DNA of 64,000 nucleotides, from sequence record MZ311863.1. One strand, given 5' to 3'. The notes under the pieces were generated by a model that saw nothing but the letters and a program-made list of their open reading frames with translations, had not been told where the DNA came from and made no database searches. Made by a program: the position numbers and the translations under genes. This DNA is from Escherichia phage vB_EcoM_LNA1. Positions within the stretch are counted from its first letter, which is position 1. Each line of letters starts with the position of its first letter. Of this stretch, positions 5,106 to 63,556 are shown in pieces.

Positions 5106-5657
5106 TCAACTTAGTTTTGCAAACTCTCCGTGGAGTTTAATAGCAGCTTCACAGTAAGCTTTATGGGCTTCTTCAGGGGTGTCAAACATACCAAGATGAT
5201 AGTTTTTACCTTGTAAACGTATCATTGCTCGAAACCTTTTACTTATCTTCTGTACACCTTTTGGCAACCCAGATGGGGACTCTCTTGACCGATTGCAAGA
5301 GTTTTGTGAAGCTGTACAAACCCTTAAATTCAAGTACCTGTTGTCCCAACCGTCCCCATTCTTATGGTCAACCTGTAAGGTTTTATCAGGTAGATATCCA
5401 TCCATATACAAGATAACTAAACGATTTGCTTGGTAACCCCTTCCATCAATCAGCAACTGAACTGACTTGTGTCCATCAGTATTTGTTCTGTAGTTTCCAG
5501 CCCTCTTACCTCCAAATCTAGAGTTAAAGTTTGCATTACCTTCTCTAAACTTCCAAGTAAAGACCCCTGTTTCGGGGTCGTAGTCCAATAGCTCCTTAAG
5601 ACGAATTTCTGTAATCATTTCAACACCATCAATGTACCTCATACCAGCTCTTACCAA
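5106..5657 (-). CDS. HNH homing endonuclease with AP2-like DNA-binding domain
   Basis: 183 aa; HKNGDGWDNRYLNLRVCTASQN (HNH_3-like) followed by RFRAMIRLQGKNYHLGMFDTPEEAHKAY (AP2-like); starts 29 nt inside the end of DNA polymerase exon 2. Confidence 0.7.
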   Translation of the reverse strand: MVRAGMRYIDGVEMITEIRLKELLDYDPETGVFTWKFREGNANFNSRFGGKRAGNYRTNTDGHKSVQLLIDGRGYQANRLVILYMDGYLPDKTLQVDHKNGDGWDNRYLNLRVCTASQNSCNRSRESPSGLPKGVQKISKRFRAMIRLQGKNYHLGMFDTPEEAHKAYCEAAIKLHGEFAKLS

Positions 5658-6185
5658 CCTTTGCTGTACCAGTTACAAGTGTTTCTTTCCTCAAACCTAA
5701 GTTTTTTGAAGCTTGTCCATACATCCAGTCAGCAATTGCTTTCATATCCTGTGTCATACCCTCTGGACATTCCCAACTATTTTCATCGTGATATGCCAGA
5801 AGTAACCTTGCTCCGATAGCTGGTTTTCGAGCATTCAGTTTTGTCAGGCCATCTTCACAGGCTTTTCTTGCTGCTAGGTTGATGGCCTCATTCTGAATCT
5901 GTGCTTCCGAACTCATCAGGAGGTAGTTCAGGAGTTTATGTGGAGATTTGCACCATATCCATGCTCCAGCGACCCTGATATAACCACCTTTAGCAATTGA
6001 AGAATTCTTCCCAAAAACCTCTTCCAGAGCCTTTTTAGACGCCTTAAAATCGGCTTCTAAGCTGTCAAGTAACTTCTTAATCTTCGGTAGACGCATATAG
6101 TAAGTCTGCTTAGTCAATGCACCTTCTTCTGTAGATGATGCCTTGATAGTTTTTGCAAACTTCTCATCACCTGCACCGAACAATA
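5629..6185 (-). CDS. DNA polymerase (family A) exon 2: end of motif B through motif C
   Basis: begins (L)FGAGDEK matching T7 gp5 YGAGDEK of motif B; contains LLLAYHDE motif C; ORF track start is TTG, so not an independent start. Confidence 0.7.
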
Positions 6186-6453
6186 CATCTGGTCAATACA
6201 CTCGCAAGGTGTACCAGTTCTCTTATGAACTTCTCCGCATTTCTACGGAGTGTCGGACTATATCACGTAGTAGTAATACTACCGTTGCACTTGGGAATGG
6301 TCATTAGCTTACCACCCTACTCTACTCAGTTCATACATTAAGTATGCTTTTCGATAGTCTCTGAACGTTCCTCTCAAGAGGCTTCGCTGCTGATTACCGT
6401 ATCTTCTCAGACTTAGGCTTCCAGCAATTCACAACGTTTTACATGCGCCACTG
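6186..6453 (-). ncRNA. putative ORF-less group I intron in DNA polymerase gene
   Basis: splits motif B (KNGIYA / LLFGAGDEK); 5' exon ends in U, intron ends in G; intron start cagtgGCGCAtg can pair with exon end uGCGU (U.G at splice site); contains GATATAGTCCGAC resembling the Tetrahymena-type P7 core, then hairpin CTCCGTAGAAATGCGGAG (P9-like). Confidence 0.6.
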
Positions 6454-8596
6454 ACGCATAAATGCCATTTTTGGCTTTCTTACGACCTTTTGTAATCTCG
6501 TGAAGAAGTTCCTCGTCCTGTGTCCCCCTACAACGAACAATATCTTCTTCCTTGTTCAGACCAAAGTAAATACTGTTCAGTGTGTGTGCATCAGTACCTG
6601 TGTAGACTTCGTAGAGGTCATTCTCAGCATCATAACGAAGATACTTATCAGTTTCTGGATTGAGGTACTTATCAAGATGCTTGCAATAGTATCTCCCATC
6701 ATCTTGCTTAGTAAATTCTACAAACTCTTTACCTTCAGTTACCGCTTTGGTGAAGTCTTTATCACCCATAAAGTTACACAGTAAAACAAGCTGTGCAGAG
6801 TTCTGGTCAACAGAAACAATGTTAGTACCCTCTTCACAAATCCACACTTCCCTCATAGGTGCTCCATAGACAGCAGCACCAGATGGTACGTTTACAATAC
6901 CATATTGTGTCATACGTCCAGTTGAAGTACCAAATACCATTGCACCAGCACTAAGGCGACCATCGGGACGAATCTGGTTCAACCAACCTTTTTCATCATC
7001 CTTTGAGTTCTCAATAGTTCTGCGTCGGTGCATCAAAGTATAGTACTTAGCAATCTTCTGTCCAAGCTCACCTTCAATCGTATCATAAGATGATTCAGTA
7101 AGCTTTGGTGAAGTACGGATTAAGCAAGGCTCAAGCAAATCTGTGTATTTCTTCACAGACCAGTTATGCTCAATGTACTGTACACCTTCATGTTCAACAT
7201 AGCTCAAACCACACCGCTCAACCATTTCCTGCCACTTAGGATGTTTTGTAATCATCTTTTTATTGTCTTTGAAACGACAAACTTTGACAGGGCGACCATC
7301 TGAGTCTTTCTTGTAGTTCCAGTCATCTGGAATCCAACCAACTGATTTCAAGTAATCTTTAACAACTGCTACCTGAGTCATACGAGAAACTTCGAACTCA
7401 ATTGGTGTATAAGGTGCATCAATCAAACCTGTGTAGCGACTTGACTCAAGCTCAAAGTGATTAACAACATGGCTGTTATAGTACTTCACAGTTTTAACTG
7501 TTTTTACTGGCTTCCAGTCTTTGCATTTCTTACCAATCTTTGCATTCAACTCATTACAAATTGCACGAGCATCCTTCATTGCTACAAAACCTTCCTTGTA
7601 CTCTTCACCAGTTACAGAGTTGGTTGGTGTATAGCAATTTCTCTTTTCAATGTTAAAAATCTTTGTAGTTGGCTTACCAAATGGTTTGATTTCATAAGTC
7701 TGCATCTCACCATTACGTACCTGCTGACGATACTTTGTCTTAGGATACTTGGTAATTCTCTTCAGTCCATCTGCATGACCAAATGTTTCAACATACTCAT
7801 TCCAAGCTTTTGCAAACTCTTCTCCAGTGACTTTACCTTTAGTCTTAATAGTTGGAGGAAGATGTGGTTCAACTTCTGAAGCAAGCTCATTAGTCAACTT
7901 GTCAAGTTCCTTTACATGGAACTCCATAAGCTCTTTATCAGCTTTCCAACCATTGATAGCCTGTTGACTCATCCAGAAAGATGTTTCTTTAGCTCGCATG
8001 TAGGTTTCATAAGTATCTACGCCACACTTCTTTAGCTTGAGATATTCATTATCCAGTGCGCGTTTAGTTTTGGCGTTAATACGGATATCTTCCACAACAC
8101 GAGTGAAGATTTCTGCATTCCACACACCCCAATGTTCAATCTCTGGTTTACGTACACCAACACGAGCACCCCATGCAGCCAAGCCATGAGCACCTTTATA
8201 ACCTTTTGGAGTTGGTCTATCCATCCACTGAACACGGGACTGGATAAGAGAATCCTGAAAGAAATTACTCCACGGTTTACACTTTGGATTATCAAAGTTC
8301 CATAAATCCGGTGCAATGTGATTGAAAACCCACCAGTCATAACCGAGACCGTTATGGATACAAAGACGTTTTGCCTTTAACGCAAACTCAACACCTTCAC
8401 GTAAGCCACCCTTAATGTACTTAGTGTACTTGTGACCGAGGATAGGCTCATCTGTAAAGACCCATACAGGTGGCTCTTCATCGTCAGATTTATAGTCTGC
8501 AAAGGCCATTACGTGAACTTTAGTGAACTCAAGGAGTAAACCATCAGTTTCTGTATCACCAACCAAATGTAAGTTTTTAAAATCTACGTTTTCCAT
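6454..8596 (-). CDS. DNA polymerase (family A) exon 1: 3'-5' exonuclease domain through first half of motif B
   Basis: VGDTETDGL exo motif near N-terminus; VSVDQNSAQL motif A-like; ends ...RKKAKNGIYA before in-frame stop in intron. Confidence 0.75.
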
Positions 8597-22988: not shown

Positions 22989-23730
22989 TAACAAGCTCTA
23001 TAGCTCATCTAAAACGTGCCTAAACAGGGAAACTCTACAGATGTAGATAATCCTGTGCTAAATGATGTAAGATGTAAGAAACTATATAACATAGGAGTAT
23101 TACATGCCAAATTATCATGTTACTGAAGACGGAAGAGTCTTTAGAGAAAATGGTGTAGAGCTTACACAGTGGAAATCCAACACTGGGTATATGAAAGTAA
23201 AGTTTTACGGTAAGAAGAATCGTGACATGTATGTCCATAGGTTAGTTGCTGAGAAATATGTACCTAACCCAAACAATCTTCCAATTGTAAAACACAAAGA
23301 TGATAACAAACTGAACAACCATGCTTCTAACTTAGAATGGGGAACTCATTCTGAGAATGTTAAAGAAGGTTATGAGAACGGTTGCTACAAGTTTTGTAAG
23401 CGTTCATATGCTGTGAAGGCTACACACAAAGTGACAAAAGAAGTTATTGCTGCCAAGTCAATACGAGAGTTATCCAACATACTCGGATATAATCGCAAGA
23501 CTATCTCTTCAATATTGAAGGGTGTAAAAGAGCATAATAACTTTGAACATGAATTTGAATACATCTAAATGCCGAACGACTAACCGTGATGAATGTAGCG
23601 GTGTAGGGTCAAGCGACTCGAAATGGTACGCTACTTAGAAATAAGTAGAAGATATAGTCTGGACTTACTGGTGACAGTAAGCAGCTTGGATAAAGCGGGG
23701 TAAGCGTAGCGAACTTACCTGAACAACAAG
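22989..23730 (+). mobile_element. putative group I intron with HNH homing endonuclease ORF, inserted in nrdD
   Basis: exon 1 ends in U (ggt), intron ends in G (acaag); joining gives in-frame ...SPMG|CRAFLSPYHNEDGEEFYVGRANIGAVSLNLP; contains AGATATAGTCTGGAC (P7-like core) at about 23650. Confidence 0.7.
23104..23568 (+). CDS. HNH homing endonuclease (intron-encoded)
   Basis: 154 aa; HKDDNKLNNHASNLEWGTHSEN HNH-like motif. Confidence 0.6.
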   Translation: MPNYHVTEDGRVFRENGVELTQWKSNTGYMKVKFYGKKNRDMYVHRLVAEKYVPNPNNLPIVKHKDDNKLNNHASNLEWGTHSENVKEGYENGCYKFCKRSYAVKATHKVTKEVIAAKSIRELSNILGYNRKTISSILKGVKEHNNFEHEFEYI

Positions 23731-58385: not shown

Positions 58386-58462
58386 CTCTGTTTAGCTCAG
58401 CTTGGTAGAGCGTTCCGTTTGGGGCGGTAAGGCCGGAGGTTCAAGTCCTCCAACAGAGACCA
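58386..58462 (+). tRNA. tRNA-Pro (UGG)
   Basis: manual fold: acceptor ctctgtt/aacagag (C1-G72), D-arm gctcagcttggtagagc, anticodon loop tttgggg, T-arm ggagg-ttcaagt-cctcc, CCA encoded. Confidence 0.65.
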
Positions 58463-58469
58463 AATTAAT

Positions 58470-58547
58470 GTTCCAGTAGACAAAATGGTATAGTCACCAC
58501 TCTTTCAAAGTGGATATTTGAGGGTTCAAATCCCTTCTGGAACGCCA
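58470..58547 (+). tRNA. tRNA-Glu (UUC)
   Basis: acceptor gttccag/ctggaac, anticodon arm ccact-ctttcaa-agtgg, T-loop ttcaaat. Confidence 0.6.
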
Positions 58548-58552
58548 GTTTT

Positions 58553-58630
58553 GACAGAAGACCAATTACAGCAAACTTAATCTTATTCATCTGAAGGTAA
58601 ATCGGACAAAGAAGAGATTTGGTCTGGTCA
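58553..58630 (+). repeat. inter-tRNA repeated element (copy a)
   Basis: gACAGAAGACCaaTTACAGCAA ... tttGGTCTGGtca; same 5' and 3' motifs recur in 3 further units. Confidence 0.5.
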
Positions 58631-58638
58631 TTAAGAAT

Positions 58639-58715
58639 TGCGGGTATAGAGAAAGGGCGTCTCACATGTCTCATTAGCATGGTATCGGCAGGTTCGACTC
58701 CTGCACCCGCCTCCA
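58639..58715 (+). tRNA. tRNA with CAU anticodon (Met or Ile2-type)
   Basis: D-arm gaga-aagggcg-tctc, anticodon arm catgt-ctcatta-gcatg, T-arm gcagg-ttcgact-cctgc; acceptor pairing imperfect, exact ends uncertain. Confidence 0.5.
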
Positions 58716-58720
58716 AATTT

Positions 58721-58790
58721 TACAGAAGACCGTTTACAGCAATATTTATTAAATTTTTAGCGGAAAAATTGAAAGATACGGTCTGGTAAT
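58721..58790 (+). repeat. inter-tRNA repeated element (copy b)
   Basis: tACAGAAGACCgtTTACAGCAA ... acGGTCTGGtaat. Confidence 0.5.
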
Positions 58791-58799
58791 ACTAAATAT

Positions 58800-58876
58800 G
58801 GTTAGGAAGCACATAAGGTATGTGCGGTCGCCTGTTAAGCGAATGGCACAGGGTTCGAATCCCTGACTAACCGCCA
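58800..58876 (+). tRNA. tRNA-Asn (GUU)
   Basis: anticodon loop ctgttaa, T-arm caggg-ttcgaat-ccctg, acceptor ggttagg/actaacc, CCA encoded. Confidence 0.65.
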
Positions 58877-58885
58877 AATTTAAAT

Positions 58886-58973
58886 GTGTCGTTATCCCGT
58901 AGATGGTAGCGGTGGGGACTGTAAATCCCTTGTCATTGAGACTCGGTAGGTTCGACTCCTACACGGCACACCA
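58886..58973 (+). tRNA. tRNA-Tyr (GUA), long variable arm
   Basis: 88 nt; anticodon arm gggga-ctgtaaa-tccct, T-arm gtagg-ttcgact-cctac, acceptor gtgtcgt/acggcac. Confidence 0.6.
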
Positions 58974-58994
58974 ATTTTGATAGGGCTACTTAGC

Positions 58995-59030
58995 CCCTCC
59001 CTTAAAGGGTTCTTACGAGTATCCTTTAAA
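58995..59030 (+). repeat. palindromic element AAGGGTTCTTACGAG..TCCTT (copy 1)
   Basis: cccttaaagggttcttacgagtatcctttaaagg; second copy at 62443. Confidence 0.5.
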
Positions 59031-59032
59031 GG

Positions 59033-59112
59033 AGCAGAAGACCAAATACAGCAAGTTACTTAAAATTTCAAGCCAATTTAATTTTGAAAAATTTAAAACT
59101 TGGTCTGGCTCA
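59033..59112 (+). repeat. inter-tRNA repeated element (copy c)
   Basis: gagCAGAAGACCaaaTACAGCAA ... ttGGTCTGGctc. Confidence 0.5.
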
Positions 59113-59120
59113 ACAAATTT

Positions 59121-59258
59121 ACAGAAGACCGTTTACAGCAAAACTTAAACAATCTATTTCTCGGTAAAGAAAAGGCGAAGATTCGACTCCTTCACTCGGC
59201 AGATGTCGAGTTGGTGTAATGGTAGCACTTAAGATGATAAACAACGGTCTGGTAATTA
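59121..59258 (+). repeat. inter-tRNA repeated element (copy d) containing tRNA-like fragments
   Basis: ACAGAAGACCgtTTACAGCAA ... T-arm-like gaagattcgactcctt and hairpin actcggcagatgtcgagt ... acGGTCTGGtaat. Confidence 0.45.
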
Positions 59259-59401
59259 CCTTTGTAGGTGAGCTATTAAGCTTACCTGTGAGTATGCGAC
59301 CACAAAGGGTGAAAGGGTAAATTCTAGATTTAAACCCAAAAAGGCACATCACTACAGACCTTAAGCAAGTCTGGGTAGCTTATCTACAAAGATAATTTAA
59401 T

Positions 59402-59477
59402 GGAAGTGTAGCAGAATGGTGATGCGGCAGACTTTTAATCTGACAGGCGATGGGTTCGATTCCCTCCACTTCTACCA
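59402..59477 (+). tRNA. tRNA-Lys (UUU)
   Basis: anticodon loop cttttaa, acceptor ggaagtg/cacttct, T-loop ttcgatt, CCA encoded. Confidence 0.6.
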
Positions 59478-59481
59478 ATAT

Positions 59482-59558
59482 GGTTCAGTCGCAGATAAGG
59501 TAATGCAAGGGTCTCATAAACCCTATGAATGTGGGTTCGATTCCCATCTGAACATCCA
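59482..59558 (+). tRNA. initiator tRNA-fMet (CAU)
   Basis: anticodon arm agGGt-ctcataa-aCCct with three consecutive G-C pairs, and 1-72 mismatch (G.A): both are bacterial initiator hallmarks. Confidence 0.6.
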
Positions 59559-59560
59559 AT

Positions 59561-59636
59561 GCTGTGAAAGCACATATGGATGTGCATTCGGCTGATAACC
59601 GAAAGGCAGAAGGTTCGAATCCTTCTCACAGTACCA
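59561..59636 (+). tRNA. tRNA-Ile (GAU)
   Basis: anticodon arm ttcgg-ctgataa-ccgaa, T-arm gaagg-ttcgaat-ccttc, D-arm gcac/gtgc. Confidence 0.65.
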
Positions 59637-59651
59637 ATTTCAATAAAGTTG

Positions 59652-59680
59652 TTGACATTGAGATGTGACTACTTTATACT
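59652..59680 (+). promoter_or_regulatory. strong sigma70-consensus promoter
   Basis: TTGACA-17 nt-TATACT; followed by about 200 nt with no ORF before next tRNA. Confidence 0.55.
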
Positions 59681-59884
59681 AACCTTAGTTTTCGTTGCGT
59701 AGCGTCTATTTTGCAAATTTAAAATAAATGCAAACGACAATGTTTTTCTGGCAGTAGCTTAATAGGCTAAACACCAGTGAGGTCTTCCAATCCCTCATCA
59801 AAGAATTTGGCGTACTCGCCCACGGTATGGTTAATAAGGTGGGCATCTTTAAGGGCTTTCTAAGAGAGTCTTTAAAGATAATTA

Positions 59885-59966
59885 CGGGGCGTATCTCAGC
59901 TGTCTTCTAAACAGCCGTTAACCGAGTAAGTGGAGTATGCGGGTTCGAGTCCTGCCGCCTCGACCA
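59885..59966 (+). tRNA. atypical tRNA-like gene (possible Arg UCU-type hairpin)
   Basis: good 7-bp acceptor cggggcg/cgcctcg and T-arm gcggg-ttcgagt-cctgc with CCA, but internal arms non-canonical; hairpin gctgt-cttctaa-acagc looks like an anticodon arm. Confidence 0.35.
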
Positions 59967-60115
59967 ATTTAGTTAGCAGATTACTTAGACGACCTAAGCG
60001 GGTCTTCCTGTAGGGAGGTGGTCTGTATCTCATGTTTTCCAGAACATGTAAATAATCTGAGAAGGGGCTTTACAGTGTTGAGATAATACGGTAAGCTTCG
60101 AATTATAGTTTTAAT

Positions 60116-60186
60116 AGGGGTGAGCTATGGCAGCAATAGAGTCTCCAAAATTCTTGATTAGAGTTCGAATCTCTCCACCCCTGCCA
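60116..60186 (+). tRNA. tRNA-Trp (CCA)
   Basis: starts aggggtg, anticodon loop ctccaaa, ends caccccctgcca; closely parallels E. coli tRNA-Trp ends. Confidence 0.7.
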
Positions 60187-60200
60187 GAACAGGTGCTTGT

Positions 60201-60605
60201 ATGAAACTTTGTAGAAAATGTTCTCAAGAAAAGCCTTTAAGCTGCTTTCATAAAAGGGGTAATGGCTATCAGTCTGCTTGCAAAGATTGTAAAGCTAAGT
60301 ACTCAGCAAAGAGATACAAAGAAGACCCTACTTATAAAGCAAAAAGAAAAGTTAGGGCAAAATATGACAAAAAGAGGAACAGAGAGTTCCTTAGTAGATA
60401 TAAAAAGTTTTGCAAATGCAGGATGTGTGGCGAATCTGAGCCAGTAGCTTTGGATTTTCATCACTTAGACCCTAAAGAGAAAGATTTTGCTCCAAGCAAT
60501 CTTAAAACTTACTCTAGAGGCACTATTAAGCGTGAAGTCCGTAAGTGTGTTGTGCTTTGTTCAAACTGTCATAGGAAAGTTCATGCAGGACTGTTAAGTA
60601 TTTAA
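60201..60605 (+). CDS. HNH endonuclease inside tRNA cluster
   Basis: 134 aa; Zn-ribbon CRKC...CKDC and DFHHLDP...CSNCHRKVH HNH motif. Confidence 0.6.
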   Translation: MKLCRKCSQEKPLSCFHKRGNGYQSACKDCKAKYSAKRYKEDPTYKAKRKVRAKYDKKRNREFLSRYKKFCKCRMCGESEPVALDFHHLDPKEKDFAPSNLKTYSRGTIKREVRKCVVLCSNCHRKVHAGLLSI

Positions 60606-60618
60606 CAGTCTTATTAGG

Positions 60619-60706
60619 GGTAGGTAGCGGCTAATGGTAGCCAAACTGTCTTGAAAACAGTTGCCACTGTAGAGATACGGTGAGGGTTCGACTCCTTTAC
60701 TTACCG
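60619..60706 (+). tRNA. tRNA-Ser (UGA), long variable arm
   Basis: 88 nt; anticodon arm actgt-cttgaaa-acagt; long variable arm; T-loop ttcgact; CCA not encoded. Confidence 0.6.
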
Positions 60707-60962
60707 CCTAATAAGATTTTAAAGCCAAGCTTCATTCGGATGTCGCTTTGGTATCCCTCGTGTTGTCTAACACATTGATAAAACACCTAGTAGGTGTCAC
60801 GGAGAAGAGATAATATCAAGCTCTCCAAAGGTTCTAGTCGCCGGATTAAACAAGACTATGCAAAGACCTTTTTAGGTCTTTTTAGAGGGCTTCTAAGGTT
60901 ATTACAGCTTGTTGTGGAACCTTGTTGCTTAGGTTCTTAGAAGTTCTCTAAAAAGATTTAAT

Positions 60963-61040
60963 GGGAGATTGATGGTAATTGGTAAACCTATCTCGCTTAG
61001 AACGAGATGTTTGAGGGTTCGAATCCCTTGTCTCCTACCA
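60963..61040 (+). tRNA. tRNA with UAG anticodon (Leu-type) but short variable arm
   Basis: anticodon arm tctcg-cttagaa-cgaga; T-arm gaggg-ttcgaat-ccctt; discriminator A; class I length. Confidence 0.5.
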
Positions 61041-61047
61041 AATTAAT

Positions 61048-61123
61048 GCAGGTGTAGCAAAATGGTTATGCGGCTGACTCTTAATCAGTAAGACGATGGG
61101 TTCGAATCCCTCCACCTGTACCA
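61048..61123 (+). tRNA. tRNA-Lys (CUU)
   Basis: paralogue of 59402 tRNA; anticodon loop ctcttaa. Confidence 0.55.
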
Positions 61124-61129
61124 AACATT

Positions 61130-61205
61130 GGGGATGTAGTTTACATGGTTAAAACATAAGTTTTGCAAACTTAAGTACAGGGTTCAATTCCCTGCTTCTC
61201 CACCA
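61130..61205 (+). tRNA. tRNA-Ala (UGC)
   Basis: G3.U70 wobble in acceptor (Ala identity element), anticodon loop ttttgcaa, ends ctccacca. Confidence 0.7.
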
Positions 61206-61211
61206 ATTAGT

Positions 61212-61286
61212 GCATCCATAGTTTAAACGGGAAAATTACAGTCTTCCAAACTGAGGTTGAGGGTTCGATTCCCTCTGGATGCTCCA
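61212..61286 (+). tRNA. tRNA-Gly (UCC)
   Basis: acceptor gcatcca/tggatgc, anticodon loop cttccaa, discriminator U. Confidence 0.65.
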
Positions 61287-61292
61287 AATAAT

Positions 61293-61369
61293 GCTGCTTT
61301 CGTATAATTGGCTATTACACATCCCTTGTAAGGATGGAAATGCAGGTTCGAGTCCTGTGAGCAGCACCA
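61293..61369 (+). tRNA. tRNA-Thr (UGU)
   Basis: anticodon arm catcc-cttgtaa-ggatg, T-arm gcagg-ttcgagt-cctgt. Confidence 0.65.
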
Positions 61370-61371
61370 AT

Positions 61372-61462
61372 TCAGAGGTCAAGTGAAAGACCGCTGGTGT
61401 CAACTGAAGACCGTAACAAATTCCACGGAGTTGAGTTAGCGGCACAACTTCAGACCTCTTTC
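61372..61462 (+). ncRNA. candidate structured non-tRNA element
   Basis: terminal inverted repeat cagaggtc...gacctct; contains ctGAAGACCGTaACAaA related to the inter-tRNA repeat motif. Confidence 0.3.
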
Positions 61463-61464
61463 AT

Positions 61465-61539
61465 ACTCGCTTAGTTTATATGGTAAAATATCACCCTTAC
61501 AAGATGAAGAAAAAGGTTCAAGTCCTTTAGTGAGTACCA
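61465..61539 (+). tRNA. tRNA-Val (UAC)
   Basis: anticodon loop cttacaa, T-arm aaagg-ttcaagt-ccttt, acceptor actcgct/agtgagt. Confidence 0.55.
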
Positions 61540-61540
61540 T

Positions 61541-61618
61541 GTTCCAGTATCCCAATTGGCAGAGGATGCAAGCTCAAACCTTGTATTAGTGACGGTTCGA
61601 ATCCGTCTTGGAACACCA
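61541..61618 (+). tRNA. tRNA with CAA anticodon (Leu-type) but short variable arm
   Basis: anticodon arm gcaag-ctcaaac-cttgt; acceptor gttccag/ttggaac shared with the Glu tRNA at 58470; discriminator A. Confidence 0.45.
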
Positions 61619-61637
61619 ATTTTAAGAGGCTATTTAG

Positions 61638-62195
61638 ATGAGATATTTGAAGTATGCTTCATGGATTTTCCTAGCTTTACTAGAACCATTTGCAGCAGCC
61701 CTAGCAGTCATCTTAGCACCTTTCGTAGTTCCATTCTACAGTGAGAAGAAAGGGCATCTACCTTTTGGATTCAGATGGATGGAGACCTATGACAACCCGA
61801 TTGATGGTGATGAAGGCCACGTTAAAAGATGGGCTAAGATTAGAAAGATTGGTAAGCTGGGTGTCTACATGCAGAGAGTTGGATGGCTCTGGAGAAACAA
61901 AGCTTATAACTTCTCTTACCATGTATTAGGAAGAGATGTAAAAGGTGTGACTAAGTGGAAAGGTAATATCAACGTAAGTTCTGACCCTGAAGATAATCAG
62001 ACAGGTTATCTCCTAATGTGGAACAGTAATGCTTGGGGATTATTCGCTTTTATCCCATCAATTAAAGTCTTTGGTAAGCAGTTTTACTGGAGAATTTATG
62101 TTGGATGGAAACTAAAAAGCGTTGTCCCAGAAGAGAGAGCATTCTCAAGGGAAAGAGTTATGTTGGCATTCTTTATTCATCCACTGAGAAAGTAA
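61638..62195 (+). CDS. hypothetical membrane protein
   Basis: 185 aa; N-terminal hydrophobic helix WIFLALLEPFAAALAVILAPFVVPF; embedded in tRNA cluster. Confidence 0.4.
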   Translation: MRYLKYASWIFLALLEPFAAALAVILAPFVVPFYSEKKGHLPFGFRWMETYDNPIDGDEGHVKRWAKIRKIGKLGVYMQRVGWLWRNKAYNFSYHVLGRDVKGVTKWKGNINVSSDPEDNQTGYLLMWNSNAWGLFAFIPSIKVFGKQFYWRIYVGWKLKSVVPEERAFSRERVMLAFFIHPLRK

Positions 62196-62203
62196 AGATT
62201 TAA

Positions 62204-62279
62204 AGGGGATTAGTTTACAAGGTTAAAACCTCGGTCTTTGAAATCGAAGAAGTTGGTTCAATTCCAACATCCCCCGCCA
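62204..62279 (+). tRNA. tRNA-Gln (UUG)
   Basis: anticodon arm tcggt-ctttgaa-atcga, T-arm gttgg-ttcaatt-ccaac. Confidence 0.55.
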
Positions 62280-62281
62280 AT

Positions 62282-62360
62282 GCTCCATTACTCCAATTGG
62301 CAGAGAGGCCAGACTTAAAATCTGTGTTATGTATCGGTTCGAATCCGATATGGAGTACCA
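62282..62360 (+). tRNA. tRNA with UAA anticodon (Leu-type) but short variable arm
   Basis: anticodon loop cttaaaa, T-arm atcgg-ttcgaat-ccgat, discriminator A. Confidence 0.45.
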
Positions 62361-62365
62361 ATTTT

Positions 62366-62441
62366 AGCGGTATAGCATAACTGGCAATGCAGCAGTCTCT
62401 GAAGCTGTCCTATTAAGGTTCAAATCCTTATGCCGCTGCCA
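62366..62441 (+). tRNA. tRNA-Gln (CUG)
   Basis: anticodon arm gcagt-ctctgaa-gctgt, T-arm taagg-ttcaaat-cctta. Confidence 0.55.
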
Positions 62442-62442
62442 C

Positions 62443-62470
62443 TTCTAAGGGTTCTTACGAGAGTCCTTAA
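62443..62470 (+). repeat. palindromic element AAGGGTTCTTACGAG..TCCTT (copy 2)
   Basis: cttctaagggttcttacgagagtccttaaatg. Confidence 0.5.
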
Positions 62471-62471
62471 A

Positions 62472-62547
62472 TGTGGCCTTATCATAAATGGTAATGACCC
62501 ATGCTGTGAACATGGTCTATACGGGTTCAAATCCCGTAGGTCACCCC
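62472..62547 (+). tRNA. tRNA-His (GUG)
   Basis: anticodon arm ccatg-ctgtgaa-catgg, discriminator C, T-arm acggg-ttcaaat-cccgt; no encoded G-1 seen. Confidence 0.6.
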
Positions 62548-62552
62548 AATTT

Positions 62553-62629
62553 ATAGTCCAAGTAGCTTATATGGTTAAAGCGCGTGTCTGAAAAACATGA
62601 GAAGAGGGTTCAAATCCCACTGGACTACC
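62553..62629 (+). tRNA. tRNA-Phe (GAA)
   Basis: anticodon arm cgtgt-ctgaaaa-acatg, acceptor tagtcca/tggacta; 3' end assignment uncertain. Confidence 0.55.
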
Positions 62630-62646
62630 AATTTCAAAGGTGCTTA

Positions 62647-63381
62647 ATGAAAGAGATGACAGAACAAGGTAAGGAGATTTTTAATCTCTTAAAAACCGGT
62701 AAAGGGTTTTCTAACCCGCTTATTACTGGTGCAGCAGTTCTCGGTGGAACCGTAGCTGCCTCTACATCACTTGTAAGCTCTATTAGCTCTGTAACAGACC
62801 CTACAATAAAAGATAAGCTTGTTGCTGCTGGGCTTACAACAGTCCTTCTAAACAGCTTTACAACAAGCCTTACAAGCACTACAGCAACTACTAAGACCCT
62901 AACAGACTACGGTCAAAAGTCTATTGATGAGTTTTCATCACGTATGCAGGTAGCAAAGGGATACTCCAATGTTATGGGTGCAGCAGGGGAACAAGTTGGT
63001 TGTACACCATTCAGTGGTATTATGGGTGTTGCTACAGAGTATGGTCAAAAAGCTATTGGCATGATGAACAGTACACTAGATAGTGTTAATGGTGTGTTAA
63101 GTGACTTGCAAGACGCTATTGATGAGGGTCTTGATACTGTTTCTGATTTAGCTAATCAAGCTGTTAGTAAAATTAATGAAGGCATTTCAAAGATTACAGC
63201 TTATGCAGATGAAGTTGTGCAGATGATTGAAGAAGAAGCTGCCCTTATTGCAGAGTACCTTAAAACGAATATTAATGGGTTCTTAGCAGGTATCTTACCA
63301 GACTGGTTTGATGATGCCTGTAAAACTGGTGTAATTGACACTATTGCAACACCAGAAATGAAGAGCGCATTACAGAAATAA
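62647..63381 (+). CDS. hypothetical Ser/Thr-rich protein
   Basis: start moved to internal Met (MKEMTEQG) because the 5' part of the ORF overlaps tRNA-Phe. Confidence 0.4.
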   Translation: MKEMTEQGKEIFNLLKTGKGFSNPLITGAAVLGGTVAASTSLVSSISSVTDPTIKDKLVAAGLTTVLLNSFTTSLTSTTATTKTLTDYGQKSIDEFSSRMQVAKGYSNVMGAAGEQVGCTPFSGIMGVATEYGQKAIGMMNSTLDSVNGVLSDLQDAIDEGLDTVSDLANQAVSKINEGISKITAYADEVVQMIEEEAALIAEYLKTNINGFLAGILPDWFDDACKTGVIDTIATPEMKSALQK

Positions 63382-63382
63382 T

Positions 63383-63475
63383 GGAAGATTAACCCTAAAA
63401 GGTAAGGGAGCAGTTTGCTAAACTGCCAGTAGCTGAGAAATCGGTGTACCAGTTCAAGTCTGGTATCTTCCTCCA
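63383..63475 (+). tRNA. tRNA-Ser (GCU), long variable arm
   Basis: 93 nt; anticodon arm gcagt-ttgctaa-actgc, 21-nt variable arm, T-arm accag-ttcaagt-ctggt. Confidence 0.65.
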
Positions 63476-63480
63476 ATTTT

Positions 63481-63556
63481 GAATCCGTGACAGAAATGGA
63501 TATGTGCCTGTCTGCAAAACAGGTTTATAAGGGTTCAAGCCCCTTCGGATTCTCCA
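63481..63556 (+). tRNA. tRNA-Cys (GCA)
   Basis: anticodon arm cctgt-ctgcaaa-acagg, discriminator U, acceptor gaatccg/cggattc. Confidence 0.65.

Follow-up and report, generated by a model that had tools for sequence, protein, structure and literature searches.

The 64,000-nucleotide (nt) stretch of DNA from Escherichia phage vB_EcoM_LNA1 (MZ311863.1), referred to here over its full length as the window, carries on its minus strand a DNA polymerase gene that is read as two frames on either side of an insert at 6453..6186, with a free-standing HNH-AP2 homing-endonuclease-like gene behind the second frame. The upstream frame, of 727 codons, starts at 8596, passes through ...RKKAKNGIYA, continues 13 codons into the insert and closes at a TAA codon (6415..6413); the downstream frame, (L)FGAGDEK..., opens at 6183 and ends at the stop codon 5631..5629. 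Comparison of alleles and of RNA structure makes it very probable that the insert is a group I intron interrupting one polymerase of 899 amino acids (aa), and that the transcript is spliced to encode that single protein. A query of 3.7 kb around the insert matches 260 phage records, nearly all of them Felix O1-like myophages (genus Felixounavirus) of Escherichia, Salmonella, and Shigella, the closest being Salmonella phage HMD-P8 at 95.5% identity. Because practically all of these polymerase-region matches are Felix O1-like, the source phage can be assigned to Felixounavirus, and not to the T5- or T7-like phages.

The boundaries of the insert are set by polymerase genes that lack it. The two exons (2143 nt and 557 nt, the latter with the stop codon) join to 2700 nt, or 899 aa, the same as in phage Alf5, whose polymerase gene is uninterrupted (L001:1604-4303). 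Exon 1 closes with ...AAA AAT GGC ATT TAT GCG T, where the last base, a U in the transcript, is the 5' splice site, and exon 2 begins TA TTG TTC GGT GCA GGT GAT GAG AAG (..LLFGAGDEK). The residues across the join are the same as in Alf5 (KGRKKAKNGIYALLFGAGDEKFAKTIKA; KGRKKAKNGIYA^LLFGAGDEKFAKTIKA; KNGIYA^LLFGAGDEK, with the caret at the join), the predicted spliced DNA junction being TATGCGT^TATTGTTC and the predicted junction peptide NGIYALLFGAGDEK. All 16 intronless alleles, from 16 loci (Alf5 and 15 of 16 IMG/VR contigs), miss exactly the 268-nt segment. The spliced protein scores 52.9 bits against Pfam DNA_pol_A, above the cutoff of 34.3, exon 2 alone reaches 25.8 bits, under that cutoff, and exon 1 alone matched no Pfam family. 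When the spliced protein is aligned to T7 gp5 with phmmer, its motif B (RKKAKNGIYALLFG) falls on that of T7 (RDNAKTFIYGFLYG), with R-K-Y-F opposite R518, K522, Y526, and Y530, and the join lies between the equivalents of G527 and F528. By this alignment, the intron sits after base 1 of the F528-equivalent codon, in the O-helix of motif B. An earlier, preliminary description of this DNA had called the gene a family-A polymerase split inside motif B and had recommended aligning the spliced protein to its T7 counterpart; family, position, and motif residues all agree with that call, and the exon junction that it proposed proves exact to the nucleotide by gene length and residue identity with Alf5.

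The insert itself is recognized as a group I intron by its covariance model. RF00028 of Rfam, whose gathering threshold is 50 bits, matches 6516..6233 on the minus strand with 61.5 bits (E = 3.7e-13, all 64 kb of the window having been searched with 4227 families), and the intron variant of phage Mushroom scores 62.3 bits. The group I assignment made in the preliminary description, which had named this covariance check, is therefore sustained by a score above threshold, and the hallmarks that it listed are found where it had placed them: exon 1 ends in U (6454), the intron ends in G (6186), and the P1 guide, the core motif GAUAUAGUC, and a P9 hairpin are present. Its statement that the intron lacks an open reading frame (ORF) also stands, in that 6186-6453 contains no sense-strand ORF of at least 40 aa. 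Antisense ORFs of 54 and 62 aa do occur there (window 6143-6341, plus strand), and their equivalent is annotated as a hypothetical protein in some GenBank records, such as that of L27; this is probably an artefact of the conserved ribozyme. The ribozyme is 96–100% conserved, whereas the flanking exons diverge by up to 30%.

Table 1. Features of the polymerase locus, with the predicted helices of the intron; all coordinates are those of the window.
Feature	Position	Strand	Basis or remark
DNA polymerase exon 1	6454..8596	-	2143 nt; ORF list, junction by the intronless Alf5 gene
Group I intron (predicted)	6186..6453	-	268 nt, no endonuclease ORF; RF00028 match and intronless alleles
DNA polymerase exon 2	5629..6185	-	557 nt with stop codon; ORF list, Alf5 comparison
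P1	6442..6460	-	Exon UAUGCGU (6460..6454) with guide GCGCAUG (6448..6442); minimum-free-energy fold
P3 5' strand to P6a block, including P5, P5a, P6	6365..6436	-	Rfam alignment, pair counts
P3 5' strand	6436..6430	-	Rfam alignment, pair counts
P4	6426..6421 with 6393..6388	-	Rfam alignment, pair counts
P6a hairpin, CCUC-UUGA-GAGG	6370..6381	-	Alignment of variants
Catalytic core, 3' half	6233..6359	-	Rfam alignment, pair counts, distant relatives
P7 5' strand	6359..6355	-	
P7.1, CAUAC/GUAUG	6346..6332	-	
P7.2, GGGUGGU/ACCA..CCC	6317..6293	-	
P3 3' strand	6289..6283	-	
P8	6282..6267	-	
J8/7 and P7 3' strand, GAUAUAGUC	6264..6256	-	
P9, GAAA loop	6250..6233	-	
P9.1 (GUUC-AUAAGA-GAAC), P9.2, then AUG and terminal G 6186	6186..6230	-	Fold and pair counts
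Upstream co-conversion tract (candidate)	6454..6476	-	Differs from Felix O1-type intronless allele
Downstream co-conversion tract (candidate), TATTGTTCGGTGCAGGTGAT	6166..6185	-	Differs from Felix O1-type intronless allele
Free-standing HNH-AP2 homing-endonuclease-like gene ("HNH1" allele, 170 aa)	5106..5618	-	Pfam HNH_3

The predicted structure (Table 1) opens with a P1 that is present in the minimum-free-energy fold, where the splice-site U6454 forms a U.G wobble with G6448. As read from the sequence, CAGUG (6453..6449) can pair with the start of exon 2, UAUUG (6185..6181), as P10, and the intron has no evident P2. Two extra hairpins separate P7 from P3, namely P7.1 and P7.2, and are a mark of subgroup IA; the architecture as a whole (P1, no P2, P3-P9, P7.1/P7.2, P9.1/P9.2) resembles that of IA2 introns, the subgroup being read here from those hairpins. 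In a MAFFT alignment of six Felixounavirus variants, the 69 base pairs of 13 helices are standard in every one of the 414 scored cells (69 pairs x 6 variants), while sliding the helix partners lowers pairing to 27–44%. Four helix substitutions separate the six variants and all of them keep pairing, two by giving G.U and two by compensation (P6a 73:84, C-G/U-A, and P8 176:183, U-A/C-G, where intron position n is window coordinate 6454-n); the P6a pair switches between C-G and U-A with the ORF-less and ORF-bearing forms of the intron. The GNRA loop of P5/P5a is GAGA here and GGAA or GUAA in relatives, so that L5 varies only within GNRA. These pair counts are supportive rather than independent, since one of the sequences counted also supplied the structure.

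More distant introns retrieved by blastn (RF00028, 82–94 bits) lie in N4-like phages, in Avunavirus 18-1-2, and in Vibrio phage 11895-B1, their hosts being the RNAP2 gene in the N4-like ZQ2, Moonfish, and MIF8 and the polymerase in Avunavirus 18-1-2. P3, P5, P6, P8, and P9 vary yet stay complementary in five distant relatives, and P5a, P6a, and P7.2 also covary among these introns; P3, for example, reads CGUUGUG/UGCAACG here, CAAGGUG/CGCCUUG in ZQ2, CCUGGUG/CGCCAGG in MIF8, and CCUCUC/GGGAGG in 18-1-2; P7.2 covaries in ZQ2 and MIF8. Helices of these relatives were located sequence by sequence, and they were excluded from the pair counts, the MAFFT alignment having misplaced the P3 3' strand and P8. 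The nearest kin of the ribozyme core outside the genus are the RNAP2-splitting introns of ZQ2 (L007), Moonfish (L024), and MIF8 (L025), in which an ORF of about 215 aa lies between the Rfam-matched core and the RNA polymerase fragment that comes next; the Moonfish record names its product an HNH endonuclease, those of ZQ2 and MIF8 a hypothetical protein. Two such introns occur about 650 nt apart near a terminase gene in Vibrio phage 11895-B1 (L026).

Within the genus, blastn with the 268 nt matches 113 records at an identity of at least 80%, and megablast about 97, of the approximately 260 with this polymerase, so that about 40% of these related records carry the intron, always at the same site. 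It comes in three forms sharing one insertion point, of 268 nt (window, L27, HMD-P8, and REP8-REP12, the last 100% identical to the window), 311 nt (Mushroom, garuso, EC106), and about 780–811 nt (EC6, JH2, FSL SP-010, VSe102, PMBT20, and others). Among the matches listed, 42 Felix-type rows divide into 19 of 268 nt, five of 311 nt, and 18 of about 780–811 nt, and the ribozyme cores of the forms are only about 2% apart. The long form has its P6a lengthened to a stem of about 16 bp, from which a 160-aa ORF with a Shine-Dalgarno sequence in front of it is looped out, an insert of some 537 extra nt relative to the window; the ORF of EC6 matches Pfam Endonuclease_7 with 71.4 bits and has a DHDH...R...CxxC-N motif. 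In VpaE1 (L006 2709-3169), the corresponding Endonuclease VII-type gene is broken into two ORFs by a deletion of about 22 nt, and this decaying copy stands between the intact gene of EC6 and the scar left in Mushroom. In the 311-nt form, the 43-nt insert consists of the 5' flank of the ORF, its last codons (AGCAAATAA), and its 3' flank, with the junction inside a short repeat (CCTAA..CAAA), and is evidently a deletion scar. The P6a of the window is only CCUC-UUGA-GAGG, with no scar. Judged from these alleles, the window intron is one allele of a polymorphic mobile intron. The "degenerated homing unit" that the preliminary description had offered as one possibility for the intron and its neighbor is upheld insofar as sister introns about 98% identical carry an endonuclease in P6a and one form retains a 43-nt scar, but that endonuclease is of the Endonuclease VII type and not the HNH-AP2 protein.

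Intron-bearing alleles resemble each other on either side of the intron as well. All of those examined (8/8; window, L002-L006, L010) read TATGCG T^TA TTG TTC, and the exon bases for P1 and P10 (TATGCGT^TATTG) are present in all eight and not in intronless alleles, whose sites read GCA CTG CTG, GCA CTA CTG, GCG TTG CTG, or GCG TTA CTG. The common intronless site (Alf5/wV8 type) is TATGCACTGCTGTTCGGTGCAGG; the Felix O1-type site (TACGCCCTGTTATTTGGAGCCGG; TAC GCC CTG TTA TTT GGA GCC GGA GAC) is native to 28 records, Felix O1 itself included. The window polymerase is a Felix O1-type allele, otherwise near-identical to the intronless L008, L009, and L022, from which it differs, over 150 nt, at 13–14 positions within the 43 nt from -23 to +20 and at four in the other 107. 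Inside this patch the window agrees with the other intron-bearing alleles, and Mushroom shows the same flank pattern in the other major polymerase allele. The simplest reading is that the donor-type exon of about 20 nt on each side represents a short co-conversion tract, the footprint of homing, and the break-making enzyme would be the intron-encoded Endonuclease VII-type protein. L008, L009, and L022 had been considered as an endonuclease-resistant, "recoded" allele, a candidate that was rejected, the site being native in 28 records and the window being the one with foreign flanks; co-conversion is the simpler reading because the flanks of the window match the other intron-bearing alleles and the Felix O1-type site is native. 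The mostly silent differences of the Felix O1-type site may nonetheless make it resistant to the endonuclease.

As for the gene behind exon 2, the preliminary description had reported an HNH-AP2 endonuclease gene at 5106-5657. The ORF is indeed present downstream, but 5657 is its longest TTG start and the likely start is the ATG at 5618, which agrees with the HMD-P8 annotation and lies 11 nt after the polymerase stop codon. It matches Pfam HNH_3 with 45.4 bits (cutoff 24.8) and AP2 weakly, with 26.6 bits, below the cutoff of 33.3 (E = 7.4e-6). At least three HNH alleles, 45–50% identical, are found in the slot that separates the polymerase stop codon from the following gene. Intron and HNH allele occur in all combinations, each allele being seen behind both intron-bearing and intronless polymerases, and in the intron-bearing EC6 and VpaE1 the locus at the polymerase end is free of an HNH gene. 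A co-occurrence search in which the intron was joined to the allele-specific part of HNH1, the one allele counted, returned 114 records, nine with both, 17 with HNH1 only, and 88 with the intron only, so that nine joint occurrences are observed against 9.7 expected (97 x 26 / 260). In Alf5 and L012, HNH1 stands behind an intronless site that is identical to the site of the HNH-less L013, L014, L017, and L020 and differs from those of L015 and L016 by one to two bases.

The edges of sequence identity place the HNH gene apart from the intron in the same way. Compared with Alf5, exon 2 of the window is 68–84% identical and identity jumps to 98–100% at the polymerase stop codon; compared with L27 and L008, exon 2 is about 100% identical, the N-terminal 430 nt of the HNH gene 48–66%, and its last 80 nt or so, with the downstream sequence, 94–100%. 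Because identity jumps at the stop codon, the boundary of cassette exchange is the end of the polymerase gene and not motif B, the left edge of the cassette lying 557 nt from the insertion site. By this comparison, the HNH-AP2 gene is no part of the intron but an independent, self-contained selfish cassette that entered where the polymerase gene ends, and the collaboration between intron and endonuclease at which the preliminary description had hinted is not supported for this allele, in view of their chance co-occurrence, of HNH1 genes behind intronless sites, and of a cassette edge at the stop codon. The HNH-AP2 alleles of L001-L023 also share near-identical ends of about 70–105 nt (...DTPEEAHKAYCEAAIKLHGEFAKLS and the stop codon; window 5106-5190, minus strand) and downstream sequence, which looks like cassette exchange between conserved flanks.

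In the mechanism proposed here, the polymerase transcript would fold, take up a free guanosine, be cut after U6454, and have 6454 joined to 6185, so that splicing would restore one 899-aa polymerase. Sister phages carry the same ribozyme with an Endonuclease VII-motif (DHHRN-family) gene looped out from P6a, and others a decayed copy of it or the 43-nt scar. The intron would have entered a Felix O1-type polymerase allele by homing, in which an endonuclease break is repaired from an intron-bearing donor, and this repair would have left the donor exon sequence, about 20 nt per side. Since its copy holds no endonuclease gene, the window intron should be unable to home alone. The splicing activity and the endonuclease cleavage site are both predicted from sequence.

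Several observations weigh against this interpretation. Splicing is predicted from sequence; variation within the genus is small, with only two compensatory pairs in a structure taken from one of the counted sequences; and the fold energy is unexceptional (z = -1.7), although weak z values are often seen in group I introns, given their pseudoknot. The Rfam model puts P1/P2 in the exon, ahead of the true splice site, a placement that was set aside for that reason, so that P1, P10, and the absence of P2 follow from manual reading. The flank pattern could also come from ordinary recombination, and the 268-nt form is scarless, such that the endonuclease gene may have been lost or not yet gained, the direction running either way. 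That the insert is a dead relic, with no splicing and with two polypeptides of 727 and 184 aa assembling into a polymerase, would suit the two "DNA polymerase" coding sequences annotated in most database records, but is extremely improbable: the break splits the O-helix between the counterparts of T7 Y526 and Y530, and exon 2 has neither an ATG nor a Shine-Dalgarno sequence, its sole in-frame start being a TTG on the splice junction, preceded by GUGUAUUGACCAGAUGUA. The insert is, moreover, a complete and covarying ribozyme, far better conserved than its exons, and intron-bearing alleles always retain the exon bases for P1 and P10. More room is left, as a possible if less favored history, for an ancestral 268-nt intron into which the Endonuclease VII-type gene was inserted later, along the Bonocora-Shub pathway. 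The clean P6a of the 268-nt form, closed by a 4-nt loop (UUGA/UUAA), the compensatory pair at the P6a base that sets it apart from the ORF-bearing forms, and its near-equal abundance with the ORF-bearing form among the matches listed would all suit this order. Gene loss is, however, demonstrated in the lineage by the ORF flanks and last codons kept in the 311-nt form and by the broken ORF of VpaE1, and the short donor-type flanks of the window imply homing driven by an endonuclease, either in the donor or in trans; with ribozyme cores about 2% apart, either order would be recent.

The proximity of the HNH-AP2 gene, only about 570 nt from the insertion site of an intron without an endonuclease gene of its own, raises the alternative of collaborative homing in trans, in which the HNH-AP2 enzyme would cut the intronless polymerase near motif B, the intron would shield its own genome, and both would spread together. 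Precedents exist in S-PM2 psbA/F-CphI and T3 gene 5.3/PhiI (background in PMC6083498) and in T4 mobE/I-TevIII (PMC2790892), and each of the six genomes with an HNH2 or HNH2-like gene, a sample both small and non-independent, combines that gene with the intron or with a non-'naive' site. We nevertheless consider this quite unlikely for the window. Intron and HNH1 coincide no more often than chance predicts; HNH1 resides beside the intronless common site in Alf5 and L012 and would therefore cut its own genome; EC6 and VpaE1 have the intron without an HNH gene at the locus; a cut at the insertion site should have co-converted exon 2, which is far less similar to that of Alf5 than HNH1 is; and relatives possess a dedicated intron-encoded endonuclease. 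Some HNH enzymes, I-HmuI among them, cut their own intron-bearing genome as well (PMC3428280). A variant can be imagined in which the HNH protein is such a nickase, tolerated by its own genome, and attacks the polymerase genes of incoming intronless phages near motif B in mixed infections, mobilizing the ORF-less intron in trans, the intron shielding its carrier both from this enzyme and from the Endonuclease VII-type one of sister phages; it too strikes us as improbable. If it were true, HNH gene, intron, and Endonuclease VII-type gene would form a three-element selfish interplay in easily handled E. coli and Salmonella phages with more than 250 genomes. The reading that we prefer remains that of a spliced, mobile intron brought in by homing, with the HNH cassette as an unrelated neighbor.

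The kind of element described here is already known, because polymerase introns and intron-encoded endonucleases of this type have been reported, and an endonuclease-bearing sibling has been noted (e.g., PMC6083498); it is an ordinary phage mobile element and not a new system. The DHHRN (Endonuclease VII-motif) family of homing endonucleases was defined by Fang et al. (2018, Mob DNA 9:27; PMC6083498), who count the proteins of JH2, EC6, and FSL SP-010 among those encoded within introns, place the endonucleases of Berlin, YpP-G, and LUZ24 in polymerase introns, and give no insertion site, structure, or ORF-less forms for the Felixounavirus introns. EC6, JH2, and FSL SP-010 share with the window the genus, the gene, the insertion point, and a ribozyme about 98% identical outside P6a; the window differs in lacking the P6a insert (the 160-aa ORF and the stem extension) and in the compensatory C-G at the P6a base. 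Family-A polymerases are also split in motif B in the T7-like Yersinia phages Berlin and YpP-G and in LUZ24-like Pseudomonas phages. The Berlin and LUZ24-like introns carry DHHRN-type endonucleases, whereas the window copy carries none; in gene-carrying motif-B introns the endonuclease lies ahead of P7 (in P6a in EC6), and the EC6 enzyme is 46% identical to that of Berlin and 52% to that of a LUZ24-like phage. Berlin shares with the window the P9.1 sequence GUUCAUAAGAGAAC and the lack of an evident P2, the Berlin and LUZ24-like ribozymes being otherwise diverged in sequence from that of the window. By our own reading of the sequences, the Berlin intron follows base 2 of T7 codon F524 and that of the LUZ24-like WS1160 base 1 of the Y526 codon, which puts the window insertion 11 nt and 6 nt downstream, respectively. 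Three diverged introns are thus associated with related Endonuclease VII-motif endonucleases (Berlin, L028 ~1336-1996; WS1160, L029 ~1330-1985; window, 6186-6453), the one related to the window being in sister phages and not in its own copy. Three insertion points within 11 nt would fit endonucleases and introns converging independently on the same conserved DNA.

Comparison can be extended to systems with other endonucleases. The polymerase intron of PhiI and W31 with I-TslI, and T3 gene 5.3, were reportedly described by Bonocora and Shub in 2004 and 2009. Like S-PM2 psbA/F-CphI, the PhiI/W31-T3 gene 5.3 system joins a group I intron in a conserved gene to an adjoining free-standing endonuclease gene, but in both the free-standing enzyme has been shown to cut the intron site, whereas the HNH-AP2 gene of the window appears unlinked to its intron. 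In the unrelated phages SPO1, SP82, Bastille, and Pf-WMP3, family-A polymerase genes also hold IA2-type introns, which differ in site (Pol I position 674) and in endonuclease family, being served by the HNH nickases I-HmuI, I-HmuII, I-BasI, and I-PfoP3I. We take the window intron site to lie at about Pol I position 764, from the correspondence between T7 and Pol I. Other polymerase introns lie at Pol I positions 674, 676 (phiL7), and 881, the last being the E. coli Pol I position of the PhiI site, which is not in motif B, and the introns of Pf-WMP3, PhiI, and W31 hold their ORF in P6a (PMC3428280). The T4 nrdB intron, with a defunct I-TevIII, is mobilized in trans by mobE (PMC2790892) and similarly shows an intron with a lost or decayed endonuclease persisting beside intact and empty alleles; for the window intron, no evidence for a trans-acting helper was found. 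In the genus itself, the Felix O1 genome paper reports no introns (PMC3185647), which is right for Felix O1; a 2021 comparison of Felixounavirus genomes leaves introns unmentioned and reads the "endonuclease VII" of FSL SP-107 as a repair enzyme (PMC8300805); and a 2023 paper gives "two introns" for phage SPJ41, without comment (PMC9951933). The searchable literature yielded no description of the exact site or the structure of this intron, of its ORF-less and scar forms, or of its population picture.

Elsewhere in the window, the anaerobic ribonucleotide reductase gene nrdD contains a second group I intron of 742 nt (22989-23730, plus strand), with a 154-aa ORF (23104-23568) that is an HNH homing endonuclease in the annotation of related records; Rfam matches its 3' half only, at 38.3 bits, under the threshold of 50. 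Removal of 22989..23730 gives a 714-aa NrdD (...ISPMG^CRAFLSPYH), and relatives show three states, with intron and ORF, about 430 nt shorter, or intronless and exactly 742 nt shorter. The wording in the literature is "nrdD split by a homing endonuclease". At least 23 tRNA genes are densely arrayed at 58386-63553 (plus strand), which fits the Felix O1-like assignment; two tRNA-Sec-like matches and one tmRNA-like match in this array are weak and below threshold, and are probably ordinary tRNAs. Felixounavirus polymerase, intron, and HNH sequences at 94–99% also appear in GU169904 (Staphylococcus phage SA1) and in MG065664 and MG065668 (Campylobacter phages A132 and A126), which suggests that these records are mixed or mislabelled assemblies.

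The polymerase intron reveals no new mechanism, and its main value lies in an annotation fix and in a natural series. About 100 public Felix O1-like genomes present the single intron-split polymerase as a pair of genes, or assign "endonuclease VII" to repair, and the correct gene model matters for engineering and for core-gene phylogenies, some of these phages having been proposed for biocontrol and therapy. In one genus and at one site, the alleles appear to span every stage of a homing endonuclease, with empty site, intact gene, broken gene, deletion scar, and minimal intron, and the intron is adjoined by what would be short co-conversion tracts and by an unrelated HNH cassette. Existing isolates would thus suffice to test models of how endonucleases come and go and of competition between phages.

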